A stretch of 64,000 bases of DNA from a virus (IMGVR_UViG_3300029305_001878:64001-128000), one strand, 5' to 3'. Shown: positions 46,858 to 64,000, counted from the stretch's first letter. Numbers and translations are program-made. Notes: generated from the sequence alone by a model not told the origin.

Positions 46858-47235
46858 ATGATGCATACTATTAACGAACTGTACAAAATCGATGGCGCAA
46901 AGTTCTACACCGCCGACTACATCATCAAGCACAACATCCCCAAGGCTAAGTCTTATAATGACACTAATGGCTGGAGCAAGTGTTATGGTTTGGGAACAGA
47001 CAGAGGCACAAAGAACATTCACACTGCTGATGGTGTAAAGGTTGTCTACACCTACGGTGAAAAGACCTACTTTGACACAGCAGAAGAGAGAGATGCCTAC
47101 AGAGTACAGCAGAACATCGCAAGGGCAGAACTTAACAAAAAGAACAAACTGCTCAAGGCTATCAACAGCCATTATCAGACTATGAGCGTTGAAGAACTTG
47201 AGGAAGTGCTAAACAACATCAAAGAGAGAGGTTGA
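46858..47235 (+). CDS. early hypothetical protein (125 aa)
   Basis: AAAGGAAG RBS. TGA stop lies inside a terminator hairpin (gagagagg…cctctctc). Confidence 0.55.
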   Translation: MMHTINELYKIDGAKFYTADYIIKHNIPKAKSYNDTNGWSKCYGLGTDRGTKNIHTADGVKVVYTYGEKTYFDTAEERDAYRVQQNIARAELNKKNKLLKAINSHYQTMSVEELEEVLNNIKERG

Positions 47236-47424
47236 TAAAAACCTCTCTCTTTCTTTGTCTGCGTGAGCGGTCGCCGCACTCCTAAATTCACTACGCTAAA
47301 GTGCTAAACAAATAAAGAGAGAAAAAATATGTAAAAAAAAATAAAAAAAATTTTCCCAAAACTATTGACAAATCCAGAAGTAAATGATATAATAAAGACA
47401 CAAAGAACAAAGGAGAGATACACA

Positions 47425-47664
47425 ATGTATACTATCACCGACACAATGGCAAGACACATCGAATACATCAAGCAGAGCGCAAAGAACTGCGCACTCTATC
47501 TGCGCAAGGACGCTATGGATATTCTGCTCGACAAGGCTTTTCACGCTTACCTTTTTGTATGCTGTGCAAACAACAAGTCTGTTGACTTCACACCTGCTGA
47601 ATTTATCCAGGAGTGCAAGGCAAATGAAAACTTCTTCAATTACTATCTGGCTTACGCTGAATAA
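47425..47664 (+). CDS. early hypothetical protein (79 aa)
   Basis: Promoter TTGACA 47365-70 / TATAAT 47388-93, AAAGGAGAG RBS and ATG 47425. TAA plus hairpin terminator. Confidence 0.55.
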   Translation: MYTITDTMARHIEYIKQSAKNCALYLRKDAMDILLDKAFHAYLFVCCANNKSVDFTPAEFIQECKANENFFNYYLAYAE

Positions 47665-48031
47665 GAGAGTGTGAAAAACACTCTCTTTTCTTTTGTCAGC
47701 GTGATCGGCCACCACAGCCCATACTTCACCCAATTAAAGTGCTAAACAAATAAAGAGAAGAAAAATATGCGGAAAAATAGTTAAAAAAATTTCCTGAAAC
47801 CCCTTGACAACAAGACCATCTTGTGATATACTTAATACATCCAATAGAGAAAGGAACACGAACTATGAAGAAACTAATTCTCGATATCATTACTATTATT
47901 GCGCGATCTGCTTGACTTGGGTTGCGTGGTCTTTCGTGGACATTGTCAGCGATAACTGCGACCCCAATCCACAACACGCAAACATCAATGCTTTTGTGCT
48001 ACTGGTTGATTAAGAAAGAGAGGTAAAAAAA

Positions 48032-48466
48032 ATGAAAGAAATGCTTTTCATCCTTGGTTGTGTATTTGTTACGGTCTTGTTCTTCGCTGCAATCATTTTC
48101 TTCACTGATAGGATTACTGGATGGTACTATGATAATCGGAATAAGAAGCGTGAAAAAGAACATCCTGAATTGTACAAGTTGTTTGATGCGGTCAATGAAA
48201 AATGCAGAGATTGTTGCCGTTGGTATAATGAACAGATTGCACCCAAGAAAAGAGAGATTGACAACATTCTCAAAGATTGGAATTATTACACTAATGAAAG
48301 AAGAGCGCAAAAAGAAGCAGAATTGAAGAAATTGCGCGCAGACCTTCAAATCGCTGAAACAATCGACAAAACTTTGGAAAGTGAACTTGTTGAACTGCGG
48401 GAGCAAACAAAGGACTATGTAAAAGAACATAATGTTGAATGGGCAAAGAAAATGGGCTGGACTTGA
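48032..48466 (+). CDS. early membrane-anchored coiled-coil protein (144 aa)
   Basis: AGAGAGG RBS. N-terminal TM helix FILGCVFVTVLFFAAIIFF. TGA inside hairpin atgggctgg…cagcccat. Confidence 0.5.
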   Translation: MKEMLFILGCVFVTVLFFAAIIFFTDRITGWYYDNRNKKREKEHPELYKLFDAVNEKCRDCCRWYNEQIAPKKREIDNILKDWNYYTNERRAQKEAELKKLRADLQIAETIDKTLESELVELREQTKDYVKEHNVEWAKKMGWT

Positions 48467-48623
48467 CAGCCCATTTTTTTCGTAGTCGGTCACTGACCCC
48501 GGAACTTCAGCGAACTAAAGTGCTAAAGAAAAATAATTGCAAAATATTGAAAAATAGTTGTTGACAAATGCTTCCTAATAGTGTATACTATAGACAGATA
48601 GAAAAGCAAAGGAGATAATAAAA

Positions 48624-48821
48624 ATGATGGATTACAGACACAGCGCATACAATATCTACACCGGCGAGATTATCAACTGCGAGAAGCCCAACTACTTGAA
48701 GCGACAGGTTGCCTACACCGGCAAGGTCAACAAGGACTATTTCAATACCAATAAAGGTGGTTGGAGATGGTCACACGACTTCGGCAAGAAGTGGGAAAGC
48801 GAAGGTTTTCCGACTAAGTGA
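48624..48821 (+). CDS. early small protein (65 aa)
   Basis: Promoter TTGACA ~48562, AAAGGAGA RBS, TGA and a terminator (aaaagggga…tcccctttttt). Confidence 0.5.
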   Translation: MMDYRHSAYNIYTGEIINCEKPNYLKRQVAYTGKVNKDYFNTNKGGWRWSHDFGKKWESEGFPTK

Positions 48822-48922
48822 AAAAGGGGATAAAAAAAATCCCCTTTTTTCTAAAAAAGGTATTGACAAATCAATCAATTGGGTGTATAATAAAGACAGA
48901 TAAAAGAAAGGGGAACACCAAA

Positions 48923-49078
48923 ATGAAAAACAACTACTTCGACACTCTCAACTGGAACTACATCGAAACCTGCGCCGAAGCAGGCATTTCCGTAGACTGC
49001 TACATCGATGATAGCCGCACTTGGATGAAGCAGATCTGGAATGATGGATTTGTAGAAATCCACGAAATTGGGGCTTGA
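48923..49078 (+). CDS. early small protein (51 aa)
   Basis: Promoter TTGACA ~48853 / TATAAT, AAAGGGGAA RBS and ATG 48923. The TGA stop lies inside the ggggcTTGACAaaagcccc hairpin, which is also the next promoter's -35. Confidence 0.45.
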   Translation: MKNNYFDTLNWNYIETCAEAGISVDCYIDDSRTWMKQIWNDGFVEIHEIGA

Positions 49079-49127
49079 CAAAAGCCCCAAGGTATGATAT
49101 ACTTAATACAACAAATAAAGAAAGGAA

Positions 49128-49433
49128 ATGAAAATAATGAAAACTAATAACACTATCAACTTTACCGAAATTTGTAAACTGGATGATATGCTTTGTTTGG
49201 CTGATCTGCCCCACACTTTCTCCCACCTGCACGATGGCTATCAGATTAAGTTCTATGCCGACGGGATGAAAACTATTTATCTTGATGATGTAGTCATTCA
49301 TTCTAGCTCCCACGGTCACGAAAAAGGATTACTTGAAACCTACAATTTGAATGCTTGCTCTGGTTATGAAACCGCTGAACAGGTTTTCAAAAGTTGGGTC
49401 AGATGGTATAAGAAAGCAAATAAAAAGGGTTGA
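49128..49433 (+). CDS. early hypothetical protein (about 98-101 aa)
   Basis: AAAGGAAATG RBS. The second ATG, at 49137, is the likelier start. The TGA stop sits inside the agggTTGACAacttcaaccct hairpin. Confidence 0.5.
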   Translation: MKIMKTNNTINFTEICKLDDMLCLADLPHTFSHLHDGYQIKFYADGMKTIYLDDVVIHSSSHGHEKGLLETYNLNACSGYETAEQVFKSWVRWYKKANKKG

Positions 49434-49492
49434 CAACTTCAACCCTTTATGCTATAATAAAACCATCCAATAGAGAAAGGAAATAAATAAAA

Positions 49493-49708
49493 ATGGAAAA
49501 AATGGTAATGACTGAAACCCTCGCTAATACACTGATGGATGCGCTTGCCTGCGTTGCGCTTTCTGCTACTGGCGGAGTTGATCCCGACAACATCAATGAT
49601 GAACAAGTAGAGTATGCTCAAGAATACGCAAGAAAGACTTTCTGCGAACTGCTCGACGCTTGGGAAGAATCGACTGGCAAAGAATGGGACATTGAAGTAG
49701 AAAATTAA
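49493..49708 (+). CDS. early acidic small protein (71 aa)
   Basis: Promoter TTGACA ~49432 / TATAAT, AGAGAAAGGAAA RBS, TAA and a terminator (gcgagggg…ccctcgc plus T-run). Confidence 0.5.
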   Translation: MEKMVMTETLANTLMDALACVALSATGGVDPDNINDEQVEYAQEYARKTFCELLDAWEESTGKEWDIEVEN

Positions 49709-49799
49709 GCGAGGGGAAACCCTCGCTTCTTTTTTTCTAAATTAAAAAATTACCTATTGACAAATTTATAAAAATATGATATAATATATATATAAAAAA

Positions 49800-49900
49800 T
49801 AAAAAATTTATTTTACTTTAGCGATTTAATTGACTAAAGTAAAAATAAAAAATTTATTTTGAAATTTTATTTACTTTAGCGATTTAATTGACTAAAGTGC
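49800..49900. repeat. 60-bp direct repeat x2, each containing the palindrome ACTTTAGCGATTTAATTGACTAAAGT
   Basis: Copies at about 49812-49840 and 49871-49898. A hairpin cggctcgct…agcgagccg follows at 49903-49945. Confidence 0.55.
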
Positions 49901-50129
49901 GGCGGCTCGCTACCGGGCGCCCTTTCCCTGCAGCGAGCCGAGTTTCACAAAGCAGGGCATTCACACTTTAAATCGTTGAAGTAGGCACTTTCACACATTA
50001 AAGCGCTAATTCCCAAAACTCCCCCAAATTTTTGTGCATTTTGACGAAAACTATTTTTTCAAAATCGGTTGACAAATCCGCATTTATCGAGTAAAATAAG
50101 GTATAACCTAAATCAAGGAGGTCACTACA

Positions 50130-50315
50130 ATGACTACTCTGTTAACTGCTGATTTTGATACCTACACTGCTATTGAAGGTTATGTATTCGATCTTCTGGC
50201 AGACGAAGAAACTGAAGTTGTTCTCTCTGAAATTCAGACTTTTGCTGCTGACCTCGGTGTAGCCTTTACTGAATGGGATTTGACTTCCTTGATGATGGAT
50301 TTTGAAGAAATTTAA
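50130..50315 (+). CDS. early acidic small protein (61 aa)
   Basis: Promoter TTGACA ~50069, CAAGGAGG RBS and TAA. Confidence 0.5.
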   Translation: MTTLLTADFDTYTAIEGYVFDLLADEETEVVLSEIQTFAADLGVAFTEWDLTSLMMDFEEI

Positions 50316-50332
50316 TTTTGGGGGTAATAATT

Positions 50333-50524
50333 ATGTATAAGTACTATTTCCACATTATTGATAACGAATTCAATTCTGAATACGACTATGAGGGTTATTT
50401 TGATAACCACGAAGAAGTCGAACCTTTCATTCAAGATAATGAAAAGGTTGGTAATATTATTACCATTATTTCTCCCTATTATGAATATGTAGACAAGGCA
50501 GATTGCCCGTCTTGTTATCTTTAA
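50333..50524 (+). CDS. early small protein (63 aa, C-terminal CPSC)
   Basis: GGGGG RBS and ATG 50333. The ORF track begins at an upstream TTG. TAA stop. Confidence 0.45.
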   Translation: MYKYYFHIIDNEFNSEYDYEGYFDNHEEVEPFIQDNEKVGNIITIISPYYEYVDKADCPSCYL

Positions 50525-50532
50525 TTTCTCTT

Positions 50533-50575
50533 TTCGTCAAAATGCACAAAAATTTTATTTGTGCATTTTGACGAA
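50533..50575. repeat. perfect ~40-bp palindrome TTCGTCAAAATGCACAAA-N-TTTGTGCATTTTGACGAA
   Basis: Seen directly. Belongs to an 18-mer family also found at ~50028, 50940, 50975, 51018 (inverted), 55285 and 55322. Confidence 0.6.
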
Positions 50576-50599
50576 AATTGGGCCGGCCGGAGACGAACG

Positions 50600-51045
50600 C
50601 GCAGAGGTAGTTGTAGGCCGAACTTTCACACGCTAAAGCGTTAGCGAATTAAAGCGTGAAAGCGGCACTTCATCGATGTAAAGCGCTAAATCCCGAAAGC
50701 GCACTTCATTTGACTAAATCGCTAAAGTGATTGTTTATTTAACTTTTCACTTTTCTTTATTTGACTAAAGCGCTAAATCGGTAAAGTGATTGTTTGTTTA
50801 ACTTTTCACTTTTATTCATTTGACTAAAGCGCTAAAGTCCGAAAGTGCCCAAGGGCCCCGGAACTTTCACGAATTAAAGTGCTACAGAATTAAATCGCTA
50901 AAGTGGCACTTCATTACGCTAAAGCGCTAATTCCCTAAAGTTTTGTGCATTTTGACGAATTTATTTGACTAAATCGCTAAATTTGTGCAATTTGACGAAT
51001 TCATTTGACTAAAGTATTAAATTCGTCAAATTGCACAAACTTTTC
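50600..51045. repeat. ~450-bp non-coding repeat field (TTGACTAAAG/CGCTAAAG units, a direct repeat TTAACTTTTCACTTTT(C/A)TTTATTTGACTAAAGCGCTAAA x2, three TTTGTGCA(A/T)TTTGACGAA copies)
   Basis: No ORF with an RBS. Shares its core with the 46298-46485 repeats. Confidence 0.55.
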
Positions 51046-51113
51046 AAAATCGCTTGCAATTCGTAAAATATGTAGTATAATAGTACCATAAGATAAAGAA
51101 AGGAATTGATACT

Positions 51114-51590
51114 ATGAAGAACTTGCCGAAGATGATTTGTTTCGATATGGATGGAACGATTGCCGACCTGTACTCTGTCAGTGGATGGCTTGAGGACTTG
51201 AGAGCGGAAAACCCTAGACCCTACCTTGAAGCCACCCCAATGTGCGATATGTGCGCACTGCGTGAAGTGTTGGAGCAGTTCCGCCAGATGGGAACAGAAA
51301 TTCGTATCATCACTTGGCTGTCTATGAACAGCACCGAAGAATACAAGGAAGCAGTACGAACCGCAAAGTTGGCTTGGCTTAACAAGTGGAATTTCCTGTT
51401 TGACAATTTCCACGGCGTGCAGTATGGAGCAACAAAGGCAGACAGTATTCGCAAGTATTTGTCCGATGGTGAAACTGCTATTTTGATTGACGATAACGCA
51501 AAGGTAAGAAGCGGTTGGCATATGGGCGAAGCAGTAAACCCGATCGAAACTGATATCGTTGCTTTCCTGCGTGGACTTTTGGAAGATTAA
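51114..51590 (+). CDS. HAD-superfamily phosphatase / 5'-nucleotidase-like protein
   Basis: Motif I FDMDGTIADL (DxDGT) and motif IV ILIDDNAK. Promoter TTGCAA-N-TATAAT ~51048-51078. Conserved translation-initiation region GAAAGGAATTGATACTATG. Confidence 0.6.
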   Translation: MKNLPKMICFDMDGTIADLYSVSGWLEDLRAENPRPYLEATPMCDMCALREVLEQFRQMGTEIRIITWLSMNSTEEYKEAVRTAKLAWLNKWNFLFDNFHGVQYGATKADSIRKYLSDGETAILIDDNAKVRSGWHMGEAVNPIETDIVAFLRGLLED

Positions 51591-51710
51591 AAAAAATCTT
51601 CCAAAATTCCGTTGAAGTGGTTGACAAGCGGCGGATTATGTGATATCATATAAGAGCAATCAAGAGCGATGGCAAACTTGATTGACATTATAAAAAGGAT
51701 CTGATAATTT

Positions 51711-52463
51711 ATGAACATTGACCGCAGAAAGCACTATCTTTTGTGCGTGGACACCGAAGCTGCAAATTGCATCCAAGAGGGATGGAAAATTAGCAAGAAC
51801 TCGCTTCCATATGACATTGGTTTTGCAGTGATGGATACACACGGGATGATTTATGACAAGTTTTCCTATGTCAATTCTGATGTGTTCTATGGTATGCCCG
51901 AACTGATGGAAAGCGCATACTATGCGAAGAAGTTGCCCCGATACCGTGAAGAAATCGCTTGCGGTTTGCGGACTGTGGCTGATACTTGGACAATTCGCAG
52001 AAAGATGCTTGAAGTCTGCGAAACATACGGAATTAAAGAGGTCGTAGCGCATAACGCAAGTTTTGACTATGACACACTAAATAACATTGTTCGATATCTG
52101 ACTGGTTCTAAAGTTCGGTATTGGTTTCCGTTTGGGACTGTCGAATGGTGGGACAGTATGAAAATGGCACAATCGGTTATTTGTAAAATGCCGATGTACA
52201 AAGAACACTGCAAAGATGTACTCGGACTGAGCAGAGCAAGCGCAAAAGCGGAAAATCTTTACAGATGGATTATTCAAAATCCCGATTTCACAGAAGCGCA
52301 TACAGGACTTGAGGATGTTCTCATTGAAAGTCAAATCGTTGCATACTGTTACAGACAGCACAAGACAATGAACAAGCGACTTTTTGCGAATGATTTTCCC
52401 GAAGCAACGGACTTCCAAATTGCGCTGATGCGCTCCATCAAAGACCACCCGATGCTTTACTGA
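51711..52463 (+). CDS. DEDDh (DnaQ/RNase T-like) 3'-5' exonuclease
   Basis: Exo I LLCVDTEA, Exo II VVAHNASFDYDTL and Exo III HTGLEDVLIESQI. Two upstream TTGACA promoters (51632, 51693). TGA plus terminator (ggggagaaaaaaatctccccc). Confidence 0.65.
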   Translation: MNIDRRKHYLLCVDTEAANCIQEGWKISKNSLPYDIGFAVMDTHGMIYDKFSYVNSDVFYGMPELMESAYYAKKLPRYREEIACGLRTVADTWTIRRKMLEVCETYGIKEVVAHNASFDYDTLNNIVRYLTGSKVRYWFPFGTVEWWDSMKMAQSVICKMPMYKEHCKDVLGLSRASAKAENLYRWIIQNPDFTEAHTGLEDVLIESQIVAYCYRQHKTMNKRLFANDFPEATDFQIALMRSIKDHPMLY

Positions 52464-52617
52464 TCGAAATATGGGGAGAAAAAAATCTCCCCCAATTTCA
52501 AAAATATTTCTTGACTTTTGAAAGTCTATCGCTTATAATAGTTAGTGTAAGGGATAACCCCTCACAAAATAAATCAAAGACAGGTTCAAGTCTTAAAAAC
52601 CGAAAGGAATTGATACT

Positions 52618-53037
52618 ATGAAAAAGTTCACTAAGAGAGAAAGCCTGACTGCCATTTCCAATGTCCTGAATGAACTGCTTGTCGCAGAGGGCAACACGGT
52701 TCTCGCCAATGTCAAGGACAAGGAATACACCGTACAGGATGCATTGGAATTTTGTTCCAACGAAATCAGCCTGTTGGACAAGAAGAACGGCACGGTAAAG
52801 AAGCCGACCGACAAGCAGATGCAGAACGAAAACTACAAGGAAGCAATTCTGCGTTATCTGCGAGAGGTTGCCCCGGAACACAAGGCAATCGCCGAAATTT
52901 GGGATAGCGTGGAAATGCTCGCAAGTAATCCCGATATGACCGGTCAGAGAATTTCCGCTCTGATTACACAGTTGAAGAACGAGAACAAGATTGTTCGAGT
53001 TGAGGAAAAGCGGAAAGCCTATTTCAAGGCAGTATAA
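52618..53037 (+). CDS. winged-helix DNA-binding protein, paralog A (139 aa)
   Basis: C-terminal ~70 aa (…YLREVAPEHKAIAEIWD…PDMTGQRISALITQLKNENKIVRVEEKRKAYFKA) are near-identical to 54407..54817, including at the DNA level. Promoter ~52510 contains the palindrome GACTTTTGAAAGTC. Conserved translation-initiation region. Confidence 0.55.
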   Translation: MKKFTKRESLTAISNVLNELLVAEGNTVLANVKDKEYTVQDALEFCSNEISLLDKKNGTVKKPTDKQMQNENYKEAILRYLREVAPEHKAIAEIWDSVEMLASNPDMTGQRISALITQLKNENKIVRVEEKRKAYFKAV

Positions 53038-53140
53038 TTTGAAGCGGTGGGGATTGAAAAAATCCCCACCGACCCCTTGACAGCAACGGAAATATTTGCT
53101 ATAATTAAGGGGCAAGATAACTAAAGGAGATGAAAACCGA

Positions 53141-53500: not shown

Positions 53501-53529
53501 GGGGCAGAAAAGAAAGTGAGGTAAAAAAA

Positions 53530-53715
53530 ATGACAAGGGAAATGCTAGAAATTGAATACCAGACTGCTTGGGAAACAATGCAGGAAGCAGAGCGAAATTA
53601 TAAAATGGCTCGCGCAAACTTTCACGATGTTGCAGGATTGCTAATGGAAAAGTTGATGCTTGAAAATGTGGATGTGCTTGCGCGATTGCGCGAAGCAGAC
53701 ACCCCTACGATTTAA
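53530..53715 (+). CDS. early small coiled-coil protein (61 aa)
   Basis: GTGAGG RBS and ATG 53530. TAA, followed by the bidirectional terminator gtgtgcgcggctggcgcacac. Confidence 0.45.
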   Translation: MTREMLEIEYQTAWETMQEAERNYKMARANFHDVAGLLMEKLMLENVDVLARLREADTPTI

Positions 53716-53816: not shown

Positions 53817-53835
53817 ACTTTAACGCTTTAGTCAA

Positions 53836-57670: not shown

Positions 57671-57776
57671 TTTTCAATTCAACTTTCTATTTCAATTTTT
57701 GGATTGAAAATCCATTTTGGATTTTCAATCCAATTTTCTATTTTAATTATACCATAATTTTTTAAATAAATCAACT

Positions 57777-58010
57777 TTATAATGTAAACATATTATTTTC
57801 TAATAAACTATCCAATTTTTTCATTTCATTTTCTACAATATAATCATATCTAGTAACCGTATCATTAGGATCATAAACTAATACCGTCTCAAATGTATCC
57901 ATATTAATATATACATCTTTAGCCCTATAATATCCATTTTTTGATAAAAGTTTATCTCTAAATTCTTCTTCTGTTACTCTCTTTAAACAAATTCTTGTTT
58001 CAATGCTCAC
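57777..58010 (-). CDS. hypothetical small protein (77 aa)
   Basis: Intact ORF with TAA stop. Confidence 0.4.
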   Translation of the reverse strand: MSIETRICLKRVTEEEFRDKLLSKNGYYRAKDVYINMDTFETVLVYDPNDTVTRYDYIVENEMKKLDSLLENNMFTL

Positions 58011-58335
58011 TATAATATCTCCAATTCAACTCTATTAATATCTTCTTTAGATATTCCTCTTCAGTATCTCCTTTATTCCATTCTACTCCATAATCTTTTC
58101 CTATCATTTTAACTATATGCTTTGGTATTTCCATTATTTATATCTCCCCGTATAGAAAAAATAAATGATATTGAGACGAGCGAAGCGAAGTCGATTATAT
58201 CATTTATTTTTTCCAATAATTATTTAGTCGTTTCTTTATTTAGTATTATTTAGATAATCTATGATTTTTTACCTAAAAGTATATGGAAGCATCTATGAAA
58301 TTTTACCTAAAAGCGTGTAGATAAAATTACCTACC

Positions 58336-58968
58336 TCACTTTTTTATATAATCGAAACTAAATTTTGTAAGTTTCTTTTTCTATTGCTACCCATTAAAAT
58401 ATTCACAATAATCTATTAAACCTGAATTACATAATAAATCTAACGCATTATTAACAATAGAATATCCGCGTGTATTATTCTTTACTCTAATACCTATATG
58501 ATTACCTAATTCTTCTAAATTAAATTCATACTAACGACCCTAACTTAACGCATACTTATATCTCTATCCTAAATAAATATAAATCTTAAATATATGTTCT
58601 CGGCAATTATCTTTTAAATACTATATAGTATCCAAAGGAATATAAAAGAACATACTTTCCATCTCTGGTAAAATATAATCTCCTTCTTCGGTTAATATTA
58701 CATATCCTTTTTCAATTAAATAATTCAAATGTGCTCTTAATGTTTTAGGACTTTTAATTCCTAATTTTTCACACACAATAGATTGTTTTGGAAATTTATC
58801 TTTATATACAATAGTATAATGATTACCTTCATCATCTTTTAAACCCATTGATATCTACTGCAAATAAGCATAAAGTTCTCCATCTATGTTTTTATCATTT
58901 AAAAAAGTTAAATAATCTAAACCAGTATCAGCAGGAAATCTTTTTGATATAGTTTTATCATCCAAAAT
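58336..58968 (-). CDS. double winged-helix protein (replication-initiator / regulator-like, ~200 codons) with at least 7 in-frame TAG
   Basis: ORFs 58855..59037 and 58621..58848 are co-frame. The frame was translated on through TAGs at 58855, 58621, 58564, 58540, 58531, 58387 and 58381 to TGA 58336-38. The second HTH-like segment is ELGNHIGIRVKNNTRGYSIVNNALDLL. AGGAGG RBS ~58969-74. Confidence 0.4.
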
Positions 58969-59029
58969 CATACACCTCCTACTATACTTAAAACTTAAAT
59001 AGGTAAAATTTTTCCATTTTACCCAAAAT

Positions 59030-59200
59030 ATAACCAACTATTAAATTTTACCTTTTTGTATTACAAAATTCTTATCGGCAACTATTAAAAATTACCTACA
59101 AATTTCAAATAAAAATAGGGAACTATTAAAAATTACCTCGTTTTTTTACCTATTTTGTTTCCCACTTAACATTTAGAGCCAACTATTAAATTTTACCTTT
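59030..59200. repeat. four direct repeats CAACTATTAAA(A/T)TTTACCT plus additional TTTTACCT copies (also at 58262-58340)
   Basis: Copies at ~59034, 59081, 59121 and 59183. These iterons flank gene 58336..58968. Confidence 0.55.
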
Positions 59201-59352: not shown

Positions 59353-59817
59353 ATGATTCATCTAAAACAATGTAAGACTTGCGGTTTTCGCATTAGCGAA
59401 TCGGGTAAGTGTAGACTAACCGGGCAGGTTAAACGGGAAACCGCATTTTGCGCCGACCACAATTATAACCCATCTATTTGTTCCAGATGTGGAGCATATA
59501 CTTTAAAACCAATTATTGAAGATAACAAAATCTACTGCCAGAAGTGCGCAGAAGAAATCGAATCTTGTATGGGCTGCGCCCATACAAACTGCGAATTTGA
59601 ACAAAATCCGTCACCAATTCCCAAATATATTCAAAAACAAATCCGTCAGGGGCCAATGATTAGTCAAATGACCGTAAAAAGTCAGAAAAGAATCGACGAA
59701 TTCTGCACAAAATGCATTTGCTGGAACGCTGAAATAAATGATTGCGGCAGGCAATTTAATTGGTGCGCTAATCACACTGACTATAGAAAGGAGATTATAA
59801 TCGAAGATGCTAACTAA
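59353..59817 (+). CDS. multi-CxxC zinc-finger protein (154 aa)
   Basis: AAGGATG RBS. At least 8 CxxC pairs. TAA overlaps the next ATG. Confidence 0.5.
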   Translation: MIHLKQCKTCGFRISESGKCRLTGQVKRETAFCADHNYNPSICSRCGAYTLKPIIEDNKIYCQKCAEEIESCMGCAHTNCEFEQNPSPIPKYIQKQIRQGPMISQMTVKSQKRIDEFCTKCICWNAEINDCGRQFNWCANHTDYRKEIIIEDAN

Positions 59818-60187
59818 ATGCCCTTTACCTTATTGCCAATATCCTGATTGTCCGTCAGGAAAAATTAGAAATTGCGGCCACCTACACGAAGACCTACTCG
59901 CAGAAGTAGTGGCCGAGCGCAATGAACTTCTAAATATTACACGACATACAGAACGCATTCTTAAAGATACTTTAAATCTTTATAAAGGAATTGCATTGAG
60001 CGAACCTGACTTCGATGCTTGTCCCTTCGGGCGCACTGATTGTATTAACAATCCTCAATATCGAAAAGAAACTGATTATAATGAATGGGCGGAGAATGAT
60101 TATCCTATGACCTGTTGGTATGTAGAAAATAATTATGTCTCCGTTGAAAAAGGTTATTGCGGTCACTATGACGATGAAGATAAGTGA
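59807..60187 (+). CDS. Cys-rich protein (126 aa)
   Basis: Translationally coupled to the preceding gene. TGA stop. Confidence 0.45.
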   Translation: MLTKCPLPYCQYPDCPSGKIRNCGHLHEDLLAEVVAERNELLNITRHTERILKDTLNLYKGIALSEPDFDACPFGRTDCINNPQYRKETDYNEWAENDYPMTCWYVENNYVSVEKGYCGHYDDEDK

Positions 60188-60196
60188 GGAAAATAA

Positions 60197-60409
60197 ATGG
60201 TTATGTTTAAAATTCATAATAATGCTTATATTAAATGGGATATAATTCGTGAAATTGAGATTAAACCTAACATTAATTTAGGAGAAGAATATCCTCACGA
60301 TATAGAAATAGATTTCATAGGCGGAGGGCACGACGTTTGGATGGTTGACGATGAATCCTTGGCTGAAATTTATAAACAATTAAATTCATCTACTATTCTT
60401 GGAGGATAA
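60197..60409 (+). CDS. hypothetical small protein (70 aa)
   Basis: GAGGAAAATAAATG RBS and TAA stop. Confidence 0.45.
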   Translation: MVMFKIHNNAYIKWDIIREIEIKPNINLGEEYPHDIEIDFIGGGHDVWMVDDESLAEIYKQLNSSTILGG

Positions 60410-60411
60410 TT

Positions 60412-60597
60412 ATGCCTAAATATGAAATTTTTGCCGGCATTTGGAACTTACACTCGCACGGCATTTATGAATATGACAATATTCACGAAGCGGAAAAAGA
60501 TGCCTATGAAAAAGCAATAGAAGAATATCATTCTTATGAGGGTTCTCACGGCATTCTTGACTATGATGAATGTTGCGAAGATGCTCGTGAATCTTGA
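60412..60597 (+). CDS. hypothetical small acidic protein (61 aa; the frame stays open 31 codons past the TGA to TAA 60692)
   Basis: GGAGGA RBS. Sequence after the TGA reads GCEDWTEEDFENFYNETIQLTIQYAVEEVSE. Confidence 0.4.
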   Translation: MPKYEIFAGIWNLHSHGIYEYDNIHEAEKDAYEKAIEEYHSYEGSHGILDYDECCEDARES

Positions 60598-60741
60598 GGT
60601 TGTGAGGATTGGACCGAAGAAGACTTTGAAAACTTTTATAATGAAACAATTCAATTAACTATCCAATATGCGGTAGAAGAGGTATCTGAATAATTTCTTA
60701 CTAAATATATTATATCATAAAAAGAAAGGAAAATCAACTAA

Positions 60742-61275
60742 ATGCGCACAGAGTATAAAGAAGTGTCTTGGCGGAATATGCGCCCGGGTGATATTATACA
60801 CCAATTCAAGTGCGGCAATAAAACCGCAATGGGAAGTTATAAAGTGTTAAGCGCAAACGTAGGAAATATTGTACTTCAATCTACATATCACGAAAACGCG
60901 ATTCCAGAAACTTATAATCCAGAAGAGTTCAAGTTGGTTATAGAATGTACTGAAGAGGAATTGCGCGAACGCTATCATAAGGCGGCGAGTGAGGCCGTTG
61001 AAGCGCTCAAAAACACAATCTCCCACGATGCTATTGGAGAACACGAAATGTGGAATGGTTGGCTTGGTGTAGACGCTTACGAATTCGCGCAAATTATTTC
61101 TAAAGAAGATTTTAAAATTATTGGTGTTTGTTATGATATTCCTATCAAACACGGTCTCTTTGATGATTTTGATATCGCTGTTGTAATTGAATACTCTGAT
61201 GGAGAAAGATTTTGGTGTCATTATAAATCTCAATGGTTATCTGATATCTTTAAAGATTGGGGTGCTAGTAAATGA
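60742..61275 (+). CDS. hypothetical protein (177 aa)
   Basis: AAAGGAAAA RBS. TGA overlaps the next ATG. Confidence 0.5.
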   Translation: MRTEYKEVSWRNMRPGDIIHQFKCGNKTAMGSYKVLSANVGNIVLQSTYHENAIPETYNPEEFKLVIECTEEELRERYHKAASEAVEALKNTISHDAIGEHEMWNGWLGVDAYEFAQIISKEDFKIIGVCYDIPIKHGLFDDFDIAVVIEYSDGERFWCHYKSQWLSDIFKDWGASK

Positions 61276-61745
61276 TGTTCTGGTTTGTTACTATTATACT
61301 TCTTGCTATCTTTTTTACCTGGGGTATTGTTCACAAAGAAAAAGATATTGAAGCGTATCTTTGTTTTATTCTTATTGCGCCATTTATTGGATTTATAGTC
61401 ACAAGTATTGGTTCACTAATTCTAATGCATAGTGCGCCGACCGCAATCATAACCGAAATTAATGAACCTATTGTTGAACTTGAAGATGGTATTTATGCCT
61501 ATTCTCAAAAAAATAGTGATTATTATTATGATGTTTTTACCGAAGATGAAAATGGTCTCCCACAAAAACGTACTTTTCATATTACACGGAATGATGTAAT
61601 TTATAGCAATAAGTATGAACCTACATATTATTATTGTGATAGAGATTATGAAGATGAAATTCTGCGCAAACTATTTTGGAAATGTAGTTGCGATGATGAA
61701 TTAAGAGTAATTCTTCCGCCCAATTCTTTAAAGGAGATTGATTAA
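61272..61745 (+). CDS. membrane protein (two N-terminal TM helices)
   Basis: ATGA overlap with the preceding gene. TAA, then terminator aaacctctttga…tcaaagaggttt. Confidence 0.5.
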   Translation: MMFWFVTIILLAIFFTWGIVHKEKDIEAYLCFILIAPFIGFIVTSIGSLILMHSAPTAIITEINEPIVELEDGIYAYSQKNSDYYYDVFTEDENGLPQKRTFHITRNDVIYSNKYEPTYYYCDRDYEDEILRKLFWKCSCDDELRVILPPNSLKEID

Positions 61746-61783
61746 ATATATAAAACCTCTTTGATAAAATCAAAGAGGTTTTA

Positions 61784-61812
61784 TTGATTTTTATAAAAAA
61801 ATATATTATAAT
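61784..61812 (+). promoter_or_regulatory. promoter cassette copy 1 (TTGATT-N17-TATAAT); identical 40-mers at 62715-62743 and 63761-63789
   Basis: TTATTGATTTTTATAAAAAAATAT(A/G)T(A/T)TAATATATATA occurs three times, each directly after a terminator hairpin. Confidence 0.55.
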
Positions 61813-61850
61813 ATATATACAAAGTAAAGATAAAGAAAGGAATTGAAACT

Positions 61851-62030
61851 ATGAATTGGAAAGATGCTGCTCTGTATTGTCGAAAGACCTTTGGTTCTCA
61901 CATTGACTGGGAAGAAGAATTCTTCGAGTGCCCTGAATGCGGCGAGCCCGTTTATAAGATCGATTGGGAAGACCACGACGATTGGAATATCTGCCCTATC
62001 TGCGAAATTGAGTGGGAGTGTGTTGAATGA
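61851..62030 (+). CDS. zinc-ribbon protein (59 aa; CPEC…CPIC)
   Basis: Conserved translation-initiation region GAAAGGAATTGAAACTATG. TGA overlaps the next ATG. Below the ORF-track size cutoff. Confidence 0.45.
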   Translation: MNWKDAALYCRKTFGSHIDWEEEFFECPECGEPVYKIDWEDHDDWNICPICEIEWECVE

Positions 62031-62350
62031 AACCTTATAATGAATTAGTTAAATCCTATAAATTTATTGAGTTCGATGATTTATGTGAACTGATTGGTGT
62101 AAAAAATGGTTTACGCTCATTTTGTTTTCCAGTAGAGCAAGGTAATGATACATTTGTTCCTATTCATTGTGATGATTATAGTCTAGAAGAATTGTATAAT
62201 GAATTGAATATTAATGATAATGACATTCTTTATACAAAATACTATGAAAAAAATTGGCGCGAACGATACAAAAATGAAATCAAACTCATTGAAACTCTGC
62301 GCGACACCTACGGCATTCGTGATACTGTATTGACTTATATTTCTTGGTAA
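62027..62350 (+). CDS. hypothetical protein (107 aa)
   Basis: Intact ORF with TAA stop. Confidence 0.45.
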   Translation: MKPYNELVKSYKFIEFDDLCELIGVKNGLRSFCFPVEQGNDTFVPIHCDDYSLEELYNELNINDNDILYTKYYEKNWRERYKNEIKLIETLRDTYGIRDTVLTYISW

Positions 62351-62353
62351 GGA

Positions 62354-62608
62354 GTGGTAAATATGATTAAGATGACTACTGCTAGTAAGGCTCGCGCTAA
62401 AACCGAGTTTGCACGAAGCATTGGAGAATATATTGAATCCTTTAACGAAGCAATTGAATACCGTACTTCTCGAGGGGAAGACCATATGAAAGCCCAGAAA
62501 GCACCTAAAATGAATATTGGACAGTGGAATATATTCCTTGATATGATTGAGAATGCGGGTTATCGCATTGTTAAGGATAATGATACTACAATTGATGTAT
62601 ATTGGTAA
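62354..62608 (+). CDS. hypothetical protein (84 aa)
   Basis: AAGGAGTGG RBS and TAA. Terminator ccgtggatg…catccacgg. Confidence 0.45.
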   Translation: MVNMIKMTTASKARAKTEFARSIGEYIESFNEAIEYRTSRGEDHMKAQKAPKMNIGQWNIFLDMIENAGYRIVKDNDTTIDVYW

Positions 62609-62775
62609 TTATGTTATTTGCTGAAATTGTCAGTGTAATCAGTTTTCTACTAATCCTTCTATTTGTTATTGTTAAATTTGTAAACCGTGGATGATTACAT
62701 CCACGGATTTTTTATTGATTTTTATAAAAAAATATATTATAATATATATAGAAGATAAGGAAAGGGAAATGAATA

Positions 62776-63024
62776 ATGGCTATTAAAATTTACAAGTGGC
62801 GATGTAAAGTCGCTGACCCTATGATTAATGAAGAGGGTGTCGCATCCAGTAGAGGATTAGTGGCAGCAGAAAGTTATACTGACGCCGTTGCTCGTGTATT
62901 TGAATATATGTGCTGTGGCAATGATGATGCAGTTTTTGATATTTATCTCGAATCTTGGGATACCGATATCCTTGGTATGGAAAAAGAAGTGCTGAAAGCA
63001 GTAGAGGAGGATCACATATTTTGA
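62776..63024 (+). CDS. hypothetical protein (82 aa)
   Basis: AAGGAAAGGGAAATG RBS and TGA stop. Confidence 0.45.
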   Translation: MAIKIYKWRCKVADPMINEEGVASSRGLVAAESYTDAVARVFEYMCCGNDDAVFDIYLESWDTDILGMEKEVLKAVEEDHIF

Positions 63025-63275
63025 CTACTAAATTTGTTCTTGCTGAGGATCCTCGTTATGGTGGAGAAGATATCCTCGGTATCTATTTTGATAGAGCAGA
63101 TGCCGAAGAAGCATTTTATGAAACCTGCGCTGACTGGGTTTATGAAACTATGATGACCGCAGACCCTCTCGATGTATTTGGTCTACCTGAATGGGATTGG
63201 AAGATTGACTATAAGTGGTTGATGGAAGATTGCGCTCGCACCTTAATTATCGTAGAGGTTCCTTGCTATGATTAA
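63021..63275 (+). CDS. hypothetical acidic protein (about 84 aa, TTG start after GGAGGA)
   Basis: The ORF-track entry 62955..63275 begins inside the previous gene. A TTG at 63021 lies 9 nt after GAGGAGGA. Confidence 0.35.
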   Translation: MTTKFVLAEDPRYGGEDILGIYFDRADAEEAFYETCADWVYETMMTADPLDVFGLPEWDWKIDYKWLMEDCARTLIIVEVPCYD

Positions 63276-63525
63276 ATACTATTGTATTACTGCATTTACT
63301 TCTTTCTGCGGTGAAGAAACAAATCATTATCTAGCAATTGAAAGCGATGATTGTCTTGATAATTATGACGCAGAAATTGATGATTGGGTTTGCGATAATG
63401 CTGAATCTTATTGGGATTATCACGAAGATGAATATGAATGTTTTGAAGATTATCTCGCTGAATGTTCTTGGGAAGAGTATGAGATATCTGAAGCAGAATA
63501 TATTTATTGTACAAAGGGTGAGTAA
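63268..63525 (+). CDS. hypothetical acidic Cys-containing protein (85 aa)
   Basis: Overlapping start. TAA overlaps the next ATG. Confidence 0.45.
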   Translation: MIKYYCITAFTSFCGEETNHYLAIESDDCLDNYDAEIDDWVCDNAESYWDYHEDEYECFEDYLAECSWEEYEISEAEYIYCTKGE

Positions 63526-63726
63526 ATGAACATCTTTAAAAATTGGTTTAATTCTTTTCTTTTGATTCTTTCTAATATGGGTGTCGTTTTTAGTCTATGC
63601 GGTGGTTTGGTGTATTCTGTAATTTTCATTTGTAATGCAAATCTGTTAGGTTTCGTTCTTTCCGGTTTTATCTCTGTTTTCTTGGCTTCTATTTTTAAGG
63701 CTATTAACGACAATTTGCCCATTTAA
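63526..63726 (+). CDS. small membrane protein (66 aa, 2 TM)
   Basis: Hydrophobic. TAA, then terminator gcctacctag…taggtaggc. Confidence 0.45.
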   Translation: MNIFKNWFNSFLLILSNMGVVFSLCGGLVYSVIFICNANLLGFVLSGFISVFLASIFKAINDNLPI

Positions 63727-63820
63727 TATATAAAGCCTACCTAGTTTTAGGTAGGCTTTATTGATTTTTATAAAAAAATATAGTATAATATATATATAAA
63801 AGTTGGAAGGAGTAAATAAA

Positions 63821-64000
63821 TTGGATAGAGATACCCTTGAAAATATGCCTATGGAACGGCTTGCCGAAGTCCATATGCTCATAAATACTATTTATAATGA
63901 AAGACAGGCTTCTCGTAAACAGAAACTTATTGAAAATCTATGTAAGGCTTATAATGACCTGCGTTGCGCTTATCCTGACCTGGGTTATTTCCCCATTAAT
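63821..64000 (+). CDS. hypothetical protein, 3'-partial (TTG start after GGAAGGAG)
   Basis: Open frame to the window end: LDRDTLENMPMERLAEVHMLINTIYNERQASRKQ…. Confidence 0.35.
   Translation, partial: MDRDTLENMPMERLAEVHMLINTIYNERQASRKQKLIENLCKAYNDLRCAYPDLGYFPIN

Follow-up and report, generated by a model that had tools for sequence, protein, structure and literature searches.

A TAG-rich gene for a putative replication initiator lies inside the TAG-free gene array of a stop-codon-recoded phage

Why should a gene packed with recoded stop codons lie in the middle of a gene array that avoids them? We address this question in a 64-kb window, the whole stretch of DNA analysed here, which represents about one third of the 185.5-kb metagenomic genome of a large phage of a Bacillota-type lineage from gut or rumen. 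A preliminary description of this DNA had set TAG-free early genes against TAG-loaded late genes, and had singled out a TAG-bearing gene within the early region as a possible translational timer.

If TAG is read as a stop codon, no open reading frame (ORF) in the window exceeds its longest, at 385 aa. Reading it as a sense codon opens the minus strand between 0.4 and 43.4 kb into genes that reach 2,887 codons. The principal features of this part of the window are the following.

392..43433, minus strand: late/structural block of 29 genes, TAG read as Gln, open only with TAG as sense
29005..30120, minus strand: virion structural protein (PHROG annotation)
39488..41230, minus strand: terminase large subunit (PHROG annotation)
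43624..45870, plus strand: small genes divergent from the late operon, sparse TAG use (3 in-frame TAGs in 613 codons)

The 29 late genes (13,448 codons) contain 187 in-frame TAGs, accounting for 31% of their TAG, CAA and CAG codons combined (187/609), and terminate in TAA (28) or TGA (one). The earlier statement that all late genes other than those for capsid and tail carry TAG was too strong: eight of the 29 lack it and prefer CAG, and only one of these eight has a virion annotation in PHROG. Two late genes reach 67% TAG, as do their homologues in relatives. Comparison of translations also showed that the similarity of 44243..44629 to its paralogue 44592..44894 runs on beyond the TAG. Codon alignment across the family of the initiator-like protein described below shows TAG to be decoded as glutamine, because close relatives place TAG at invariant Gln columns (window codons 38, 63 and 136) where distant relatives have CAA or CAG. 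A tRNA search of the window and a 9.5-kb extension (73.5 kb of the 185.5-kb genome) returned no tRNA at all, hence no suppressor; a tRNA(CUA) near the initiator homologue was found in one distant relative only. We infer that this genome has a suppressor tRNA.

Two blocks of small plus-strand genes show the opposite codon usage.

46583..56954, plus strand: block E1, about 19 small TAG-free genes, GC 38-42%, stops TAA or TGA only
59353..64000, plus strand: block E2, TAG-free small genes, packed or overlapping, GC about 34%

Some 40 plus-strand genes had been claimed for 46.8-64 kb; 31 could be called, at 46,858-63,726, comprising 3,269 codons. The claim that this array is free of TAG, both internally and as a stop, holds throughout the window: TAG occurs 55 times off frame and never in frame, 45 in-frame TAGs would be expected at the late-gene rate (P ~2e-20), and the stops are 16 TGA and 15 TAA. 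Hairpin terminators close several E1 genes, and the stop codon lies in such a hairpin in 11 of the 31 genes rather than usually, as had been proposed. E1 appears to be driven by about 20 near-consensus host sigma-70/sigma-A-type promoters (TTGACA-N17-TATAAT with an upstream A-tract and a TG-extended -10), one per gene or gene pair, which on alignment form a shared family with the A-tract in common. Of 28 promoter matches with at most one mismatch in the window, 22 fall in E1 (46.5-56.6 kb), against a chance expectation of 1.6 for the whole window; the label "early" for E1 gains support from these near-perfect host-type promoters. The promoters of E2 are of a TTGATT type and are placed after hairpins, its first gene encodes a conserved Cys-rich protein of 154 aa, and in the source contig the block runs on to 73.5 kb or beyond. 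Because TAG serves as neither sense codon nor stop in E1 and E2, both blocks are predicted to be code-neutral, with proteins identical with or without active amber suppression. In-frame TAGs are absent from all 31 window genes, and further along the array this absence is no longer complete: a GIY-YIG endonuclease gene 5.5 kb beyond the window has three, and one small array gene past the window uses TAG as its stop. In its dense packing of very small genes, in which host-type promoters and ribosome-binding sites are strong throughout and many genes have a terminator of their own, E1 resembles the host-takeover module of Bacillus phage SPO1, except that E1 lies within the available contig and is not demonstrably part of a terminal redundancy.

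The early/late TAG split and the temporal model built on it are already published for stop-codon-recoded phages (code 15, TAG to Gln) whose early genes stay compatible with the standard code (Borges et al. 2021/2022, bioRxiv 10.1101/2021.08.26.457843, which cites previous studies of crAss-like and Lak phages). As in those phages, structural genes here need TAG as sense, one block is without in-frame recoded stops, the size class (~185-200 kb) resembles that of their large clades, and the proposed logic is the same: host code for early genes, late genes awaiting suppression. The temporal-control model is plausible, fitting the sequence and matching the published model, and is not new. The same study reported preferential recoding of lysis genes, tail genes and an intron endonuclease, proposed that a few gene families are recoded in this way as a timing device, described alternative code use in the replication machinery as "variable", and found replication genes in standard code in crAss-like and Agate representatives (bioRxiv 10.1101/2021.08.26.457843). 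The preferentially recoded homing endonuclease of Agate phages is likewise a TAG-bearing gene within an early array free of recoded stops, and the GIY-YIG gene, with its 3 TAGs, is the direct equivalent in the present genome. What differs from the phages of Borges et al. is that the most TAG-biased gene is initiator-like and embedded in the TAG-free region; unlike the Agate endonuclease, it appears to be no mobile selfish element, and rather a syntenic core gene with its own putative binding sites. The new detail is that the likely initiator gene is TAG-packed though placed inside a TAG-free region. The terminase large subunit shares 44-46% identity with those of the Phass-1 group and of large Enterococcus/Geobacillus siphoviruses (OQ749652, PP680570, OP534061, KP144388). 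TAG is likewise recoded to Gln in 28% of the ORFs of Phass-1, whose presumed hosts are Clostridia (PMC10607447); the present genome exceeds those of that group by about 50 kb.

The gene in question belongs to a minus-strand island between E1 and E2.

57053..57091, unstranded: perfect hairpin with a 13-bp stem, likely bidirectional terminator between convergent genes 56559..56954 (plus) and 57670..57212 (minus)
57088-57164: 21-nt tandem repeat following that hairpin
57212..57670, minus strand: island gene, 151 aa, ending GGG-TAG-TAA
58134..58000 (44 aa) and 58010..57777 (77 aa), minus strand: two small overlapping ORFs, no TAG
58155..58213, minus strand: perfect 17-bp hairpin, CTTCGCTTCGCTC loop and T-rich tail, downstream of the initiator gene
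58336..58971, minus strand: gene for a two-winged-helix protein of 211 aa, putative iteron-binding initiator, TAG-rich (hereafter rep)

The single TAG attributed to 57212..57670 is present, as the last codon with TAA directly after it, and is compatible with either code. This gene has a promoter-like site (TTGATT-N17-TATAAT, 57774..57746), has no match in Pfam or PHROG, and is not conserved at related loci; the ORFs within 57777..58134 appear to be variable cargo. The hairpin at 58155..58213 likely ends a monocistronic rep transcript, and similar hairpins with CTTCG-type loops occur downstream of the homologue in many relatives. Synteny is also kept: in relatives, too, the rep island is bracketed by homologues of the flanking 131-aa and 154-aa genes.

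The rep gene had been described as carrying at least seven TAGs. It has exactly seven, at codons 39, 117, 136, 144, 147, 195 and 197 (58857-55, 58623-21, 58566-64, 58542-40, 58533-31, 58389-87 and 58383-81), in a frame that is uninterrupted by TAA or TGA over 211 codons of DNA with a local GC of 28% and is preceded by a strong AGGAGG ribosome-binding site. Standard-code annotation breaks this frame into genes of 38 and 75 aa, as would befit a pseudogene or several small genes. The preliminary description had itself named separate genes in different frames as a finding that would count against it; we find a single frame, and 370 database homologues that are mostly full length (~205-215 aa), with 51 invariant columns in an aligned sample. 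The AlphaFold model is a coherent fold of two winged helices (pLDDT 87), and the 13 differences between close relatives, among them 11 single third-position changes and one CAA/TAG codon, are almost all synonymous. The locus is one gene, and we reject the fragmented reading, to which we assign next to no probability.

A 75-aa N-terminal winged-helix fragment had also been proposed to be made before suppression and the full-length protein afterward, the two differing in activity. A standard-code ORF of that length (58848..58621) does span most of the first winged helix, and standard-code gene callers annotate it. Its ATG at 58848 is internal, lacks a Shine-Dalgarno sequence and encodes an unconserved methionine, whereas from the real start translation stops at codon 39, leaving a product of 38 aa. 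An extra TAG occurs inside the first 3-11 codons in five related lineages, and no short product is conserved. A pair of short and long products is highly improbable; the general idea of a timer is strengthened, in that the gene looks like an initiator and its TAG enrichment exceeds that of late genes and is both conserved and renewed in related phages.

The surroundings of rep bear on its function.

59036..59198, minus strand: four copies of the direct iteron AGGTAAWWTTTAATAGTT, their starts 44, 41 and 60 nt apart
58291-58308 and 58257-58274, minus strand: two downstream iterons, within 58257..58335
Adjoining the rep stop codon, minus strand: degenerate third downstream iteron copy, within 58257..58335
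58997..59021, unstranded: inverted repeat of half-iterons, GGTAAAAT-N6-ATTTTACC, between the iterons and the rep start codon
59201..59265, unstranded: second repeat pair, TTTAWYYAGATGTAYAAAATTTTAAC twice, in the AT-rich spacer from the iterons to the divergent E2 promoter

Six of the eight window matches to the iteron motif flank rep, against 0.31 expected, and the motif is absent upstream of other window genes. Over about 10 lineages the iteron sequence co-varies with the protein, and an equivalent palindrome occupies the same place in L012, L014, L016, L020 and others; we regard the inverted repeat as a putative autoregulatory operator. One DnaA-box-like site (8/9) lies at 59241-59249, and DnaA boxes across the window are at chance level, with no enrichment. 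At the domain level, the model resembles the RepA_N initiator, the DnaD/DnaB N-terminal domains and ORC2. Solved structures match single winged-helix domains rather than the whole protein, those of lowest rmsd being RepA_N initiator domains, and the full-length BFVD matches that carry names are "Replication initiator protein" or replisome organisers. By sequence, the protein falls in no Pfam, NCBIfam or PDB initiator family, Rep_3 and RepA_N included, and has no match in PLSDB plasmids or in any GenBank phage record, the Phass-1 group included. Given the six to seven iterons and the putative operator of inverted half-iterons around the gene, its product is most likely a replication initiator at its origin, an identity and a function that we infer from repeat layout and predicted fold; an oppositely oriented origin module would then sit between E1 and E2.

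The repeats may instead be operators for the promoter of rep and the divergent promoter of E2, with the protein a late-made repressor or activator that, for example, switches E2 off after the code switch. They do occupy the divergent promoter region, and the sole sequence-family signals, both sub-threshold, are HTH_36 and the LexA DNA-binding domain, the latter model touched by 9 of 32 homologues. We consider a regulator unlikely: seven direct repeats distributed on either side of the gene, together with a distinct inverted repeat, form a classic iteron/operator layout, the motif is confined as described, the structural matches point to initiators, and the second domain is also a winged helix, with no LexA-type peptidase.

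Iteron-type plasmid initiators include RepA of pPS10, RepE of F and pi of R6K. The predicted protein shares two winged-helix domains with these and with RepA_N of staphylococcal plasmids (PDB 4PTA, 4PT7, 4PQL, 5KBJ). The locus shares with iteron plasmids direct-repeat arrays beside the gene, a separate half-site inverted repeat at the promoter, and repeats that co-vary with the protein. It differs from Rep_3 and RepA_N in lacking sequence membership in any curated family, its structural similarity being single-domain only, and from iteron plasmids in its unenriched DnaA boxes and in repeats 41-60 nt apart, where plasmid iterons are typically spaced by ~22 nt. To our knowledge, no plasmid initiator depends on amber suppression for its translation.

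Is the TAG load of rep exceptional? Seven of its 10 Gln codons are TAG, versus 187/609 in late genes (p = 0.013), 0/6 in the other island genes (p = 0.010) and 5/25 (20%) in the genes next to the left edge of the window, RuvC and dUTPase among them. Across eight related lineages the rep share is 62-100%, though p-values for TAG share are not independent where lineages share ancestry, and small-number effects are large with 8-13 Gln codons per gene. In the four relatives for which both loci are available, rep has 10/12, 8/12, 5/8 and 8/8, compared with 17-37% in the late genes of the same phages; further relatives have 8/8, 9/9, 12/13 and 9/10. Flanking genes lack TAG in 33 of 34 cases in the best-resolved relative, L009, and flanks elsewhere, from rougher ORF calls, show the same tendency. 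Newly arisen, lineage-specific Gln positions in the close clade are TAG rather than CAA by 24 to 5, while in the distant clade TAG stands at 10 to 23 for CAA/CAG, and full saturation (8/8 or 9/9) recurs across lineages with 52-70% protein identity. Taken together, the excess over late genes, the high share in relatives and the bias of new Gln codons show, at the level of codon comparison, a TAG load that is gene-specific and maintained. It seems not to be indispensable, because L009 and L013 have CAA/CAG in place of ancestral TAGs and the distant clade keeps the island architecture with rep at a baseline share. Nor is the enrichment unique within the genome, given the two late genes at 67%.

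These exceptions would suit an unremarkable gene of the middle or late class, placed by chance on the late-gene strand, whose TAG share arises from shared ancestry, a C-to-T bias converting CAG to TAG and weak selection on a protein of low abundance. Highly expressed virion genes avoid TAG, so that the share varies with expression level, and it is conceivable that AT-biased mutation, for which CAA and TAG are both sinks relative to CAG, gives a neutral TAG share of ~40%. We nevertheless give this account little credence, as the other low-abundance enzymes RuvC and dUTPase stand at 20%, the co-oriented island neighbours have none, same-strand late genes with the same GC skew reach 31%, and both the 24:5 bias and recurrent saturation at such divergence run against it.

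In iteron plasmids, surplus initiator inhibits origins through handcuffing and autorepression. The TAGs might accordingly be attenuators, release factor 1 removing a fraction of ribosomes at each and keeping the iteron-binding initiator scarce all through infection. Gene-specific enrichment fits such dose control equally, the inverted half-iteron operator suggests tight control of initiator level, and TAG number drifts up and down among close relatives like a tunable dial. By sequence alone it is inseparable from timing; a weak ribosome-binding site or promoter would be simpler, yet the AGGAGG site is strong, and the total avoidance of TAG in the flanking arrays is left unexplained. Constant attenuation is in our view not a probable explanation.

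We tentatively favour, somewhat short of considering it probable, a model in which initiator synthesis depends steeply on amber suppression, which would couple the code switch to origin firing or to the dose of initiator. Without an active suppressor tRNA, ribosomes would halt on the initiator mRNA after 38 residues. A calculated illustration has full-length yield falling as roughly the seventh power of per-codon read-through, for which reason the gene would behave as a steep threshold sensor of the switch. Replication gated in this way conflicts with the standard-code replication genes of some recoded phages. Once suppression became efficient, initiator would accumulate, and the iterons would be bound and fired; the expression timing and the adaptive value of gating are presumed. 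If it is true, the initiator would be made only once the phage has changed the genetic code of the cell.

Reading TAG as a sense codon changes the apparent gene content of the window. The longest open reading frame (ORF) spans 385 aa when TAG is a stop and 2,887 codons when it is sense, and on the minus strand the stretch from 0.4 to 43.4 kb becomes a contiguous, operon-like series of 29 late genes. Structural genes that are fragmented under the standard code are open under this reading, the pattern expected of code 15, in which TAG is read as glutamine. Across the 13,448 codons of the late genes we counted 187 in-frame TAGs, amounting to 1.4% of codons and 31% of TAG+CAA+CAG. The amino acid is identified by the protein family of rep (58971..58336, minus strand), a gene for an initiator-like protein that lies between two arrays of plus-strand genes. 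At the invariant Gln columns of this family (window codons 38, 63 and 136), the nearer group of homologues (the close clade) carries TAG whereas the farther group (the distant clade) carries CAA or CAG, which shows directly that TAG means glutamine in the window phage.

TAG usage is uneven among the late genes. According to the preliminary description, every gene from 0.4 to 45.9 kb except those for capsid and tail carries TAG. This holds for the plus-strand genes at 43.6-45.9 kb and for 21 of the 29 late genes, but it is too strong as a rule: eight late genes are TAG-free, and only one of these (29005..30120) has a virion annotation (PHROG). Pfam and PDB sequence searches returned nothing for the TAG-free late proteins of at least 189 aa, including the putative capsid protein. 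Four of the larger TAG-free genes (1765-2532, 29005-30120, 33983-35122 and 35141-35938, all minus strand) are GC-richer and contain 9-13 CAG against 1-6 CAA codons. Their high GC and preference for CAG over CAA suggest high expression, and they presumably encode highly expressed virion proteins. Two of them lie in one late segment:

33983-35122 and 35141-35938, minus strand: in the GC-richest late segment of the window (34-36 kb, GC 0.42), resembling the early genes

At the other extreme, two minus-strand late genes are strongly TAG-biased, with TAG at 10 of 15 Gln codons (27709-28776) and 8 of 12 (30145-30864). Their homologues in related phages share the bias (9/14 and 7-9/16, respectively), and in the window the two border a TAG-free virion protein gene on both sides. 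Pattern matches to near-consensus or perfect host-type promoters are present at the head of the late operon (43553..43525, in a divergent pair at 43525-43590) and within it (27707..27679). These sequences are compatible with translation, not transcription, setting part of the timing; if active, they could allow early synthesis of late mRNAs, with translation as the only brake.

The window belongs to a large phage genome. Its last 10.7 kb are identical to the JGI contig Ga0318466_10001127 (185,543 bp), where it corresponds to about positions 94,046-158,045, which indicates that it covers approximately one third of such a genome, and its first 7.2 kb are identical to several shorter metagenome contigs. 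An overlapping locus, L001, carries the sequence on to position 73,525 in window coordinates. We found no close DNA relative among GenBank phages; the single megablast match of the window covers 883 bp at 72%. For its terminase large subunit (39488..41230), identity to the proteins of large Enterococcus and Geobacillus siphoviruses and of the TAG-recoded gut phage Phass-1 is 44-46%. IMG/VR contains no fewer than 63 related contigs, many of them 160-200 kb long; IMGVR_UViG_3300045988_110853, _151351 and _119030 are examples from the close clade. The gene for a 1,071-aa tail-like protein (4621..7836) includes a dockerin type I module at about 6595-6753 (458-616 of locus L005). This module also points to a Bacillota host, and tentatively to Clostridia with cellulosomes or to a rumen-type habitat.

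TAG is absent from the plus-strand genes on the right side of the window. About 40 such genes had been described between 46.8 and 64 kb; we find support for 31 (46,858-63,726), and the claim that none uses TAG, internally or as a stop, stands for all of them. Their 3,269 codons include no in-frame TAG, although 55 occur off frame; at the late-gene rate, 45 would be expected (P ~2e-20). The absence of TAG stops (0/31) would itself be improbable if TAG were an ordinary stop at 15-20% use (P = 0.007-0.001). Because TAG is shunned both as sense codon and as stop, these genes yield the same product under either code. They end in TGA (16) or TAA (15), in sharp contrast to the late genes (28 TAA, 1 TGA), a difference that may arise partly from composition (GC 40% early versus 31% late). 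Hairpins, which had been placed at most of the early stops, coincide with the stop codon in 11 of the 31 genes. The arrays and an exceptional gene beyond the window are as follows:

46.6-57.0 kb, plus strand: block E1, a TAG-free array with GC 38-42%
59.35 to at least 73.5 kb, plus strand: block E2, a TAG-free array with GC of about 34%, genes tightly packed or overlapping, and TTGATT-type promoters after hairpins
69565-70227 of the extended window (L001 16298-16960): a free-standing GIY-YIG homing-endonuclease gene with three in-frame TAGs, one within the catalytic domain

The TAG-free property continues through 18 further genes beyond the window, with two exceptions. One is a 71-aa gene that stops at TAG, where read-through would add seven residues. 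The other is the GIY-YIG gene with its three internal TAGs. Its presence in an otherwise TAG-free array parallels the preferentially recoded endonuclease of Agate phages.

The promoters of E1 offer the strongest sequence evidence that this block would be read immediately by host polymerase. Of the 28 window sites that deviate from TTGACA-N17-TATAAT by no more than one base, 22 fall within its 10 kb (46583-56536), compared with 1.6 expected by chance in the whole window, and they constitute one family, marked by an A-tract upstream and by a -10 element of the TG-extended type. In its layout, with many tiny genes each under its own promoter, the block resembles a host-takeover module. Products of E2 include a nucleotidyltransferase, two phosphoribosyltransferase-like proteins and an isochorismatase-family enzyme.

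Several other elements are scattered among the early genes. Noncoding short-repeat arrays occupy intergenic positions at 46267-46477, 49804-49898 and 50700-51024, in which TTTGACTAAATCGCTAAAG and its variants recur about nine times or more and ACTTTAGCGATTTAATTGACTAAAGT occurs twice, without an Rfam match; they may be protein-binding sites or decoys. The window and its extension as a whole matched no Rfam family. Two early paralogues (52618-53037 and 54407-54817) share 73% DNA identity across 279 nt, and their C-terminal halves are almost the same; their ribosome-binding context, GAAAGGAATTGATACTATG, is also found at 51114..51590. Two perfect (12/12) consensus promoters on the minus strand, 53889-53917 and 55404-55433, oppose the direction of the early genes. 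Both are intergenic, in regions with a common repeated element, and could possibly give rise to antisense or regulatory transcripts.

A division in which early genes lack TAG while structural and lysis genes carry it is known from crAss-like and Lak phages and six further clades (bioRxiv 10.1101/2021.08.26.457843). In the model put forward there, early genes are expressed in the host code and then make the code-changing machinery. Since the split is already established, the window provides another example of it in an undescribed phage lineage, and the interpretation given in the preliminary description coincides with the published model. The observation itself holds once several details are corrected. 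ARAGORN detected no tRNA gene in the window and its 9.5-kb extension (73.5 kb of the 185.5-kb contig), and no suppressor tRNA in most related loci. A distant relative, L019, has an array of ten tRNAs, one of them tRNA(CUA), located 4.6 kb from its rep homologue, and a closer relative (L018/L209) has a 17-tRNA array approximately 9 kb from the homologue, with no CUA anticodon in the 4.8 kb covered there.

Between E1 and E2 lies a minus-strand island that departs from the early pattern:

Minus strand, between E1 and E2: the island, four ORFs
57670..57212, minus strand: 151-aa ORF ending in a GGG-TAG-TAA tandem that is valid under either code
58134..57777, minus strand: two small ORFs without TAG
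58971..58336, minus strand: rep, a single 211-codon frame (636 bp) with seven TAGs

The one TAG that had been assigned to 57212..57670 is present, but as part of the terminal GGG-TAG-TAA and not as an internal sense codon. The description of rep as a double winged-helix gene with at least seven TAGs is borne out: there are seven, and the AlphaFold2 model (pLDDT 87) contains two winged-helix domains, as looked for in an iteron initiator. In relatives, the island lies between homologues of the same two flanking genes, with variation in the small downstream ORFs. On the E1 side, a 21-nt tandem repeat (CACTCATTTTTTTTATTTATT, ~3.6 copies, 57088-57164) adjoins the bidirectional terminator hairpin that separates E1 from the island. 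On the E2 side, a gene divergent from rep and abutting its flanking repeats (59353-59817) encodes a Cys-rich 154-aa protein with many CxxC pairs; its position is kept in at least seven related loci.

A gene with seven stop codons under the standard code could be a pseudogene or a set of split genes, and separate fragments in different frames were one outcome considered for rep. We found one single 211-codon frame. The protein has 370 database homologues, most of them 205-215 aa long; an alignment of 23 sequences has 51 columns without variation, and close copies of the gene differ almost only synonymously. Together these features indicate that the gene is real, and we rejected both the pseudogene and the split-gene readings.

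TAG is concentrated in rep well beyond its late-gene frequency. Seven of its ten Gln codons are TAG, compared with 31% in the late genes (p = 0.013) and none of six in the other island genes (p = 0.010); for RuvC, dUTPase and their neighbors, adjacent to the window on its left, the count is 5 of 25. Within this genome rep ranks among the most TAG-biased genes but is not unique, since two late genes reach 67%. In four relatives for which both the initiator and late-gene loci are available, rep has TAG at 10/12, 8/12, 5/8 and 8/8 Gln codons against 17-37% in late genes. Pooled over five phages, each represented by a partial genome, the figure is 38/50 against the same 17-37%. Other close lineages have 8/8, 9/9, 12/13 and 9/10, and around the homologue in L009, 33 of 34 flanking genes are without TAG. 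The distant clade keeps the island architecture with 0-5 TAGs in the rep homologue.

Orientation-linked mutation bias was rejected as the sole cause of this load, as co-oriented neighbors and late genes on the same strand lack it. A rival reading is that the TAG load has no function. Gln positions specific to single lineages, which approximate independent events, divide TAG 24 : CAA 5 in the close clade and TAG 10 : CAA/CAG 23 in the distant clade. Losses of TAG occur too, among others in L009 and L013, and in part involve double changes within one codon. Overall, these counts point to sustained, clade-specific pressure toward TAG in rep, with turnover, subject to the caveats of shared ancestry, few codons per gene and a neutral TAG baseline that AT-biased mutation could bring near 40%.

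Individual codons illustrate the turnover. CAA/TAG differences, which take two changes via CAG, separate L009 from L010 at codon 151 and L013 from L017 at codon 92, in genes 2-6% divergent; between L009 and L010, codon 151 is the sole doubly hit codon among 13 differences. At 58855-58860 (alignment columns 41-42), the invariant Gln38 is TAG in nine of nine close relatives, and the window phage has CAG38 followed by a new TAG39, so that a TAG is kept where the most conserved N-terminal segment ends.

Published families of preferentially recoded genes comprise lysis genes, tail genes and an intron endonuclease inside an early gene, with replication machinery "variably" recoded (bioRxiv 10.1101/2021.08.26.457843). 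By its TAG counts, which come from partial genomes and carry no phylogenetic correction, rep qualifies as such a family in the sense of that study. In the literature consulted we found no description of a TAG-enriched, iteron-flanked initiator-like gene, and we rate this gene as an addition to the known class.

The surroundings of rep bear on its assignment as initiator-like. Iterons, copies of AGGTAAWWTTTMATAGWT, occur on both sides of the gene, which accounts for six of the eight matches in the window (0.31 expected):

59036-59198: upstream iterons, four copies
58257-58308: downstream iterons, two copies plus a degenerate third by the stop codon
58997-59021: inverted half-iteron repeat, GGTAAAAT-N6-ATTTTACC, between the upstream repeats and the start codon

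With four copies upstream and two to three downstream, the gene has the three or more direct repeats of ~17-22 bp that define an iteron array. The classic layout of iteron plasmids pairs direct repeats, used for initiation, with an inverted half-site operator, used for autoregulation, and both are bound by a two-winged-helix protein. The inverted repeat here is a putative autoregulatory operator, and relatives have it at the equivalent place. The layout recurs in over ten related lineages while the repeat sequence co-varies with the protein, lineage variants including TAATAGTT, TCATAGTT, GGATAGTT, GTGATAGT, CTACTTAC and CTACGTTAG. A hairpin terminator after the downstream repeats indicates that rep is apparently monocistronic. 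DnaA boxes are at chance level in the window (23 versus 21 expected, two near rep), and because the whole region is AT-rich, a distinct unwinding element cannot be called.

Neither sequence nor full-length structure places the protein in a curated initiator family (Rep_3, RepA_N, DnaD-like and others). Pfam and PHROG searches gave only sub-threshold HTH_36 and LexA_DNA_bind matches and a weak DnaD-like PHROG, NCBIfam yielded nothing above cut-off (sub-threshold LexA-type or Sso10a-type only), and a PDB profile search found nothing significant. With tblastn, no homologue was detected in INPHARED/GenBank phages or PLSDB plasmids. Foldseek against the PDB produced single-domain matches only (E >= 0.017), the best of low rmsd being non-significant ones to RepA_N domains; in a viral structure library, full-length matches include "Replication initiator protein" and "Replisome organizer". 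Comparison of the predicted structure thus lends limited support to an initiator identity.

A role for the protein as a transcription regulator remains a rival. The protein does not fit the LexA/MarR type of winged-helix repressor: PF01726 reaches 17.7 bits, below its cut-off of 23.7, and the C-terminal half is a second winged helix and not the LexA peptidase S24. The LexA TIGRFAM model matches 9 of 32 homologues (best E = 1e-4). Maintenance as a phage-plasmid was set aside, as no partition genes were seen and an unsuppressed lysogen would be unable to make an initiator so rich in TAG. On balance, the gene probably works like an iteron initiator while having no place in a described family; given the iteron and operator layout, the limited structural likeness and the lack of family membership, we file it by its manner of working and not as a family member.

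How its TAGs might act can be approached from the codons themselves. The preliminary description envisaged a 75-aa N-terminal winged-helix fragment before suppression and the full-length protein afterwards. This idea does not hold up: the 75-aa ORF would have to start at an internal ATG (Met42) that is not conserved and lacks a ribosome-binding site, the first TAG is codon 39, and under the standard code rep yields at most a 38-residue peptide. A programmed two-isoform gene is likewise rejected because the first stop is not conserved, with an extra TAG in the first 3-11 codons of five relatives (L012, L013, L015, L017 and L018).

The number of TAGs would have a steep consequence. With a per-codon read-through of s, full-length yield would scale as ~s^7, so that s values of 0.5, 0.7 and 0.95 would give 0.8%, 8% and 70%. 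On the likeliest of the readings considered, the initiator would then appear only under efficient suppression, and iteron binding and origin firing would be linked to the code switch through the TAG-gated protein. In a close rival reading, the TAGs would limit the dose of a protein harmful in excess. Returning to the code switch, we tentatively propose, as a possibility that may well prove wrong, that in a widespread clade of ~160-200-kb amber-recoded phages, in which the Gln codons of rep are almost all TAG, the switch licenses origin firing. The gene would act as an ultrasensitive sensor of suppression efficiency, of roughly seventh to tenth power, coupling replication, or a change in replication mode, to the rewriting of the code. 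To our knowledge, a checkpoint of this kind, with replication licensed by a code switch, has not been described for any replicon.

The interest of the island gene is moderate at present and would be greater if gating of replication were demonstrated. The island is an unusually clean and compact test object for the hypothesis that the code switch acts as a regulator: a single 636-bp gene with 7-10 amber codons adjoins its own putative binding sites, many related genomes share it, a number of them with ordinary Gln codons that provide natural controls, and its dependence on read-through is directly measurable with reporter fusions. Two practical points follow for annotation. Under the standard code, core replication genes of such phages are missed or split, and iteron searches can find likely origins where GC skew is uninformative. 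If synthesis of the initiator is gated by suppression, the timing of replication would join lysis as a process controlled by recoding in these phages.
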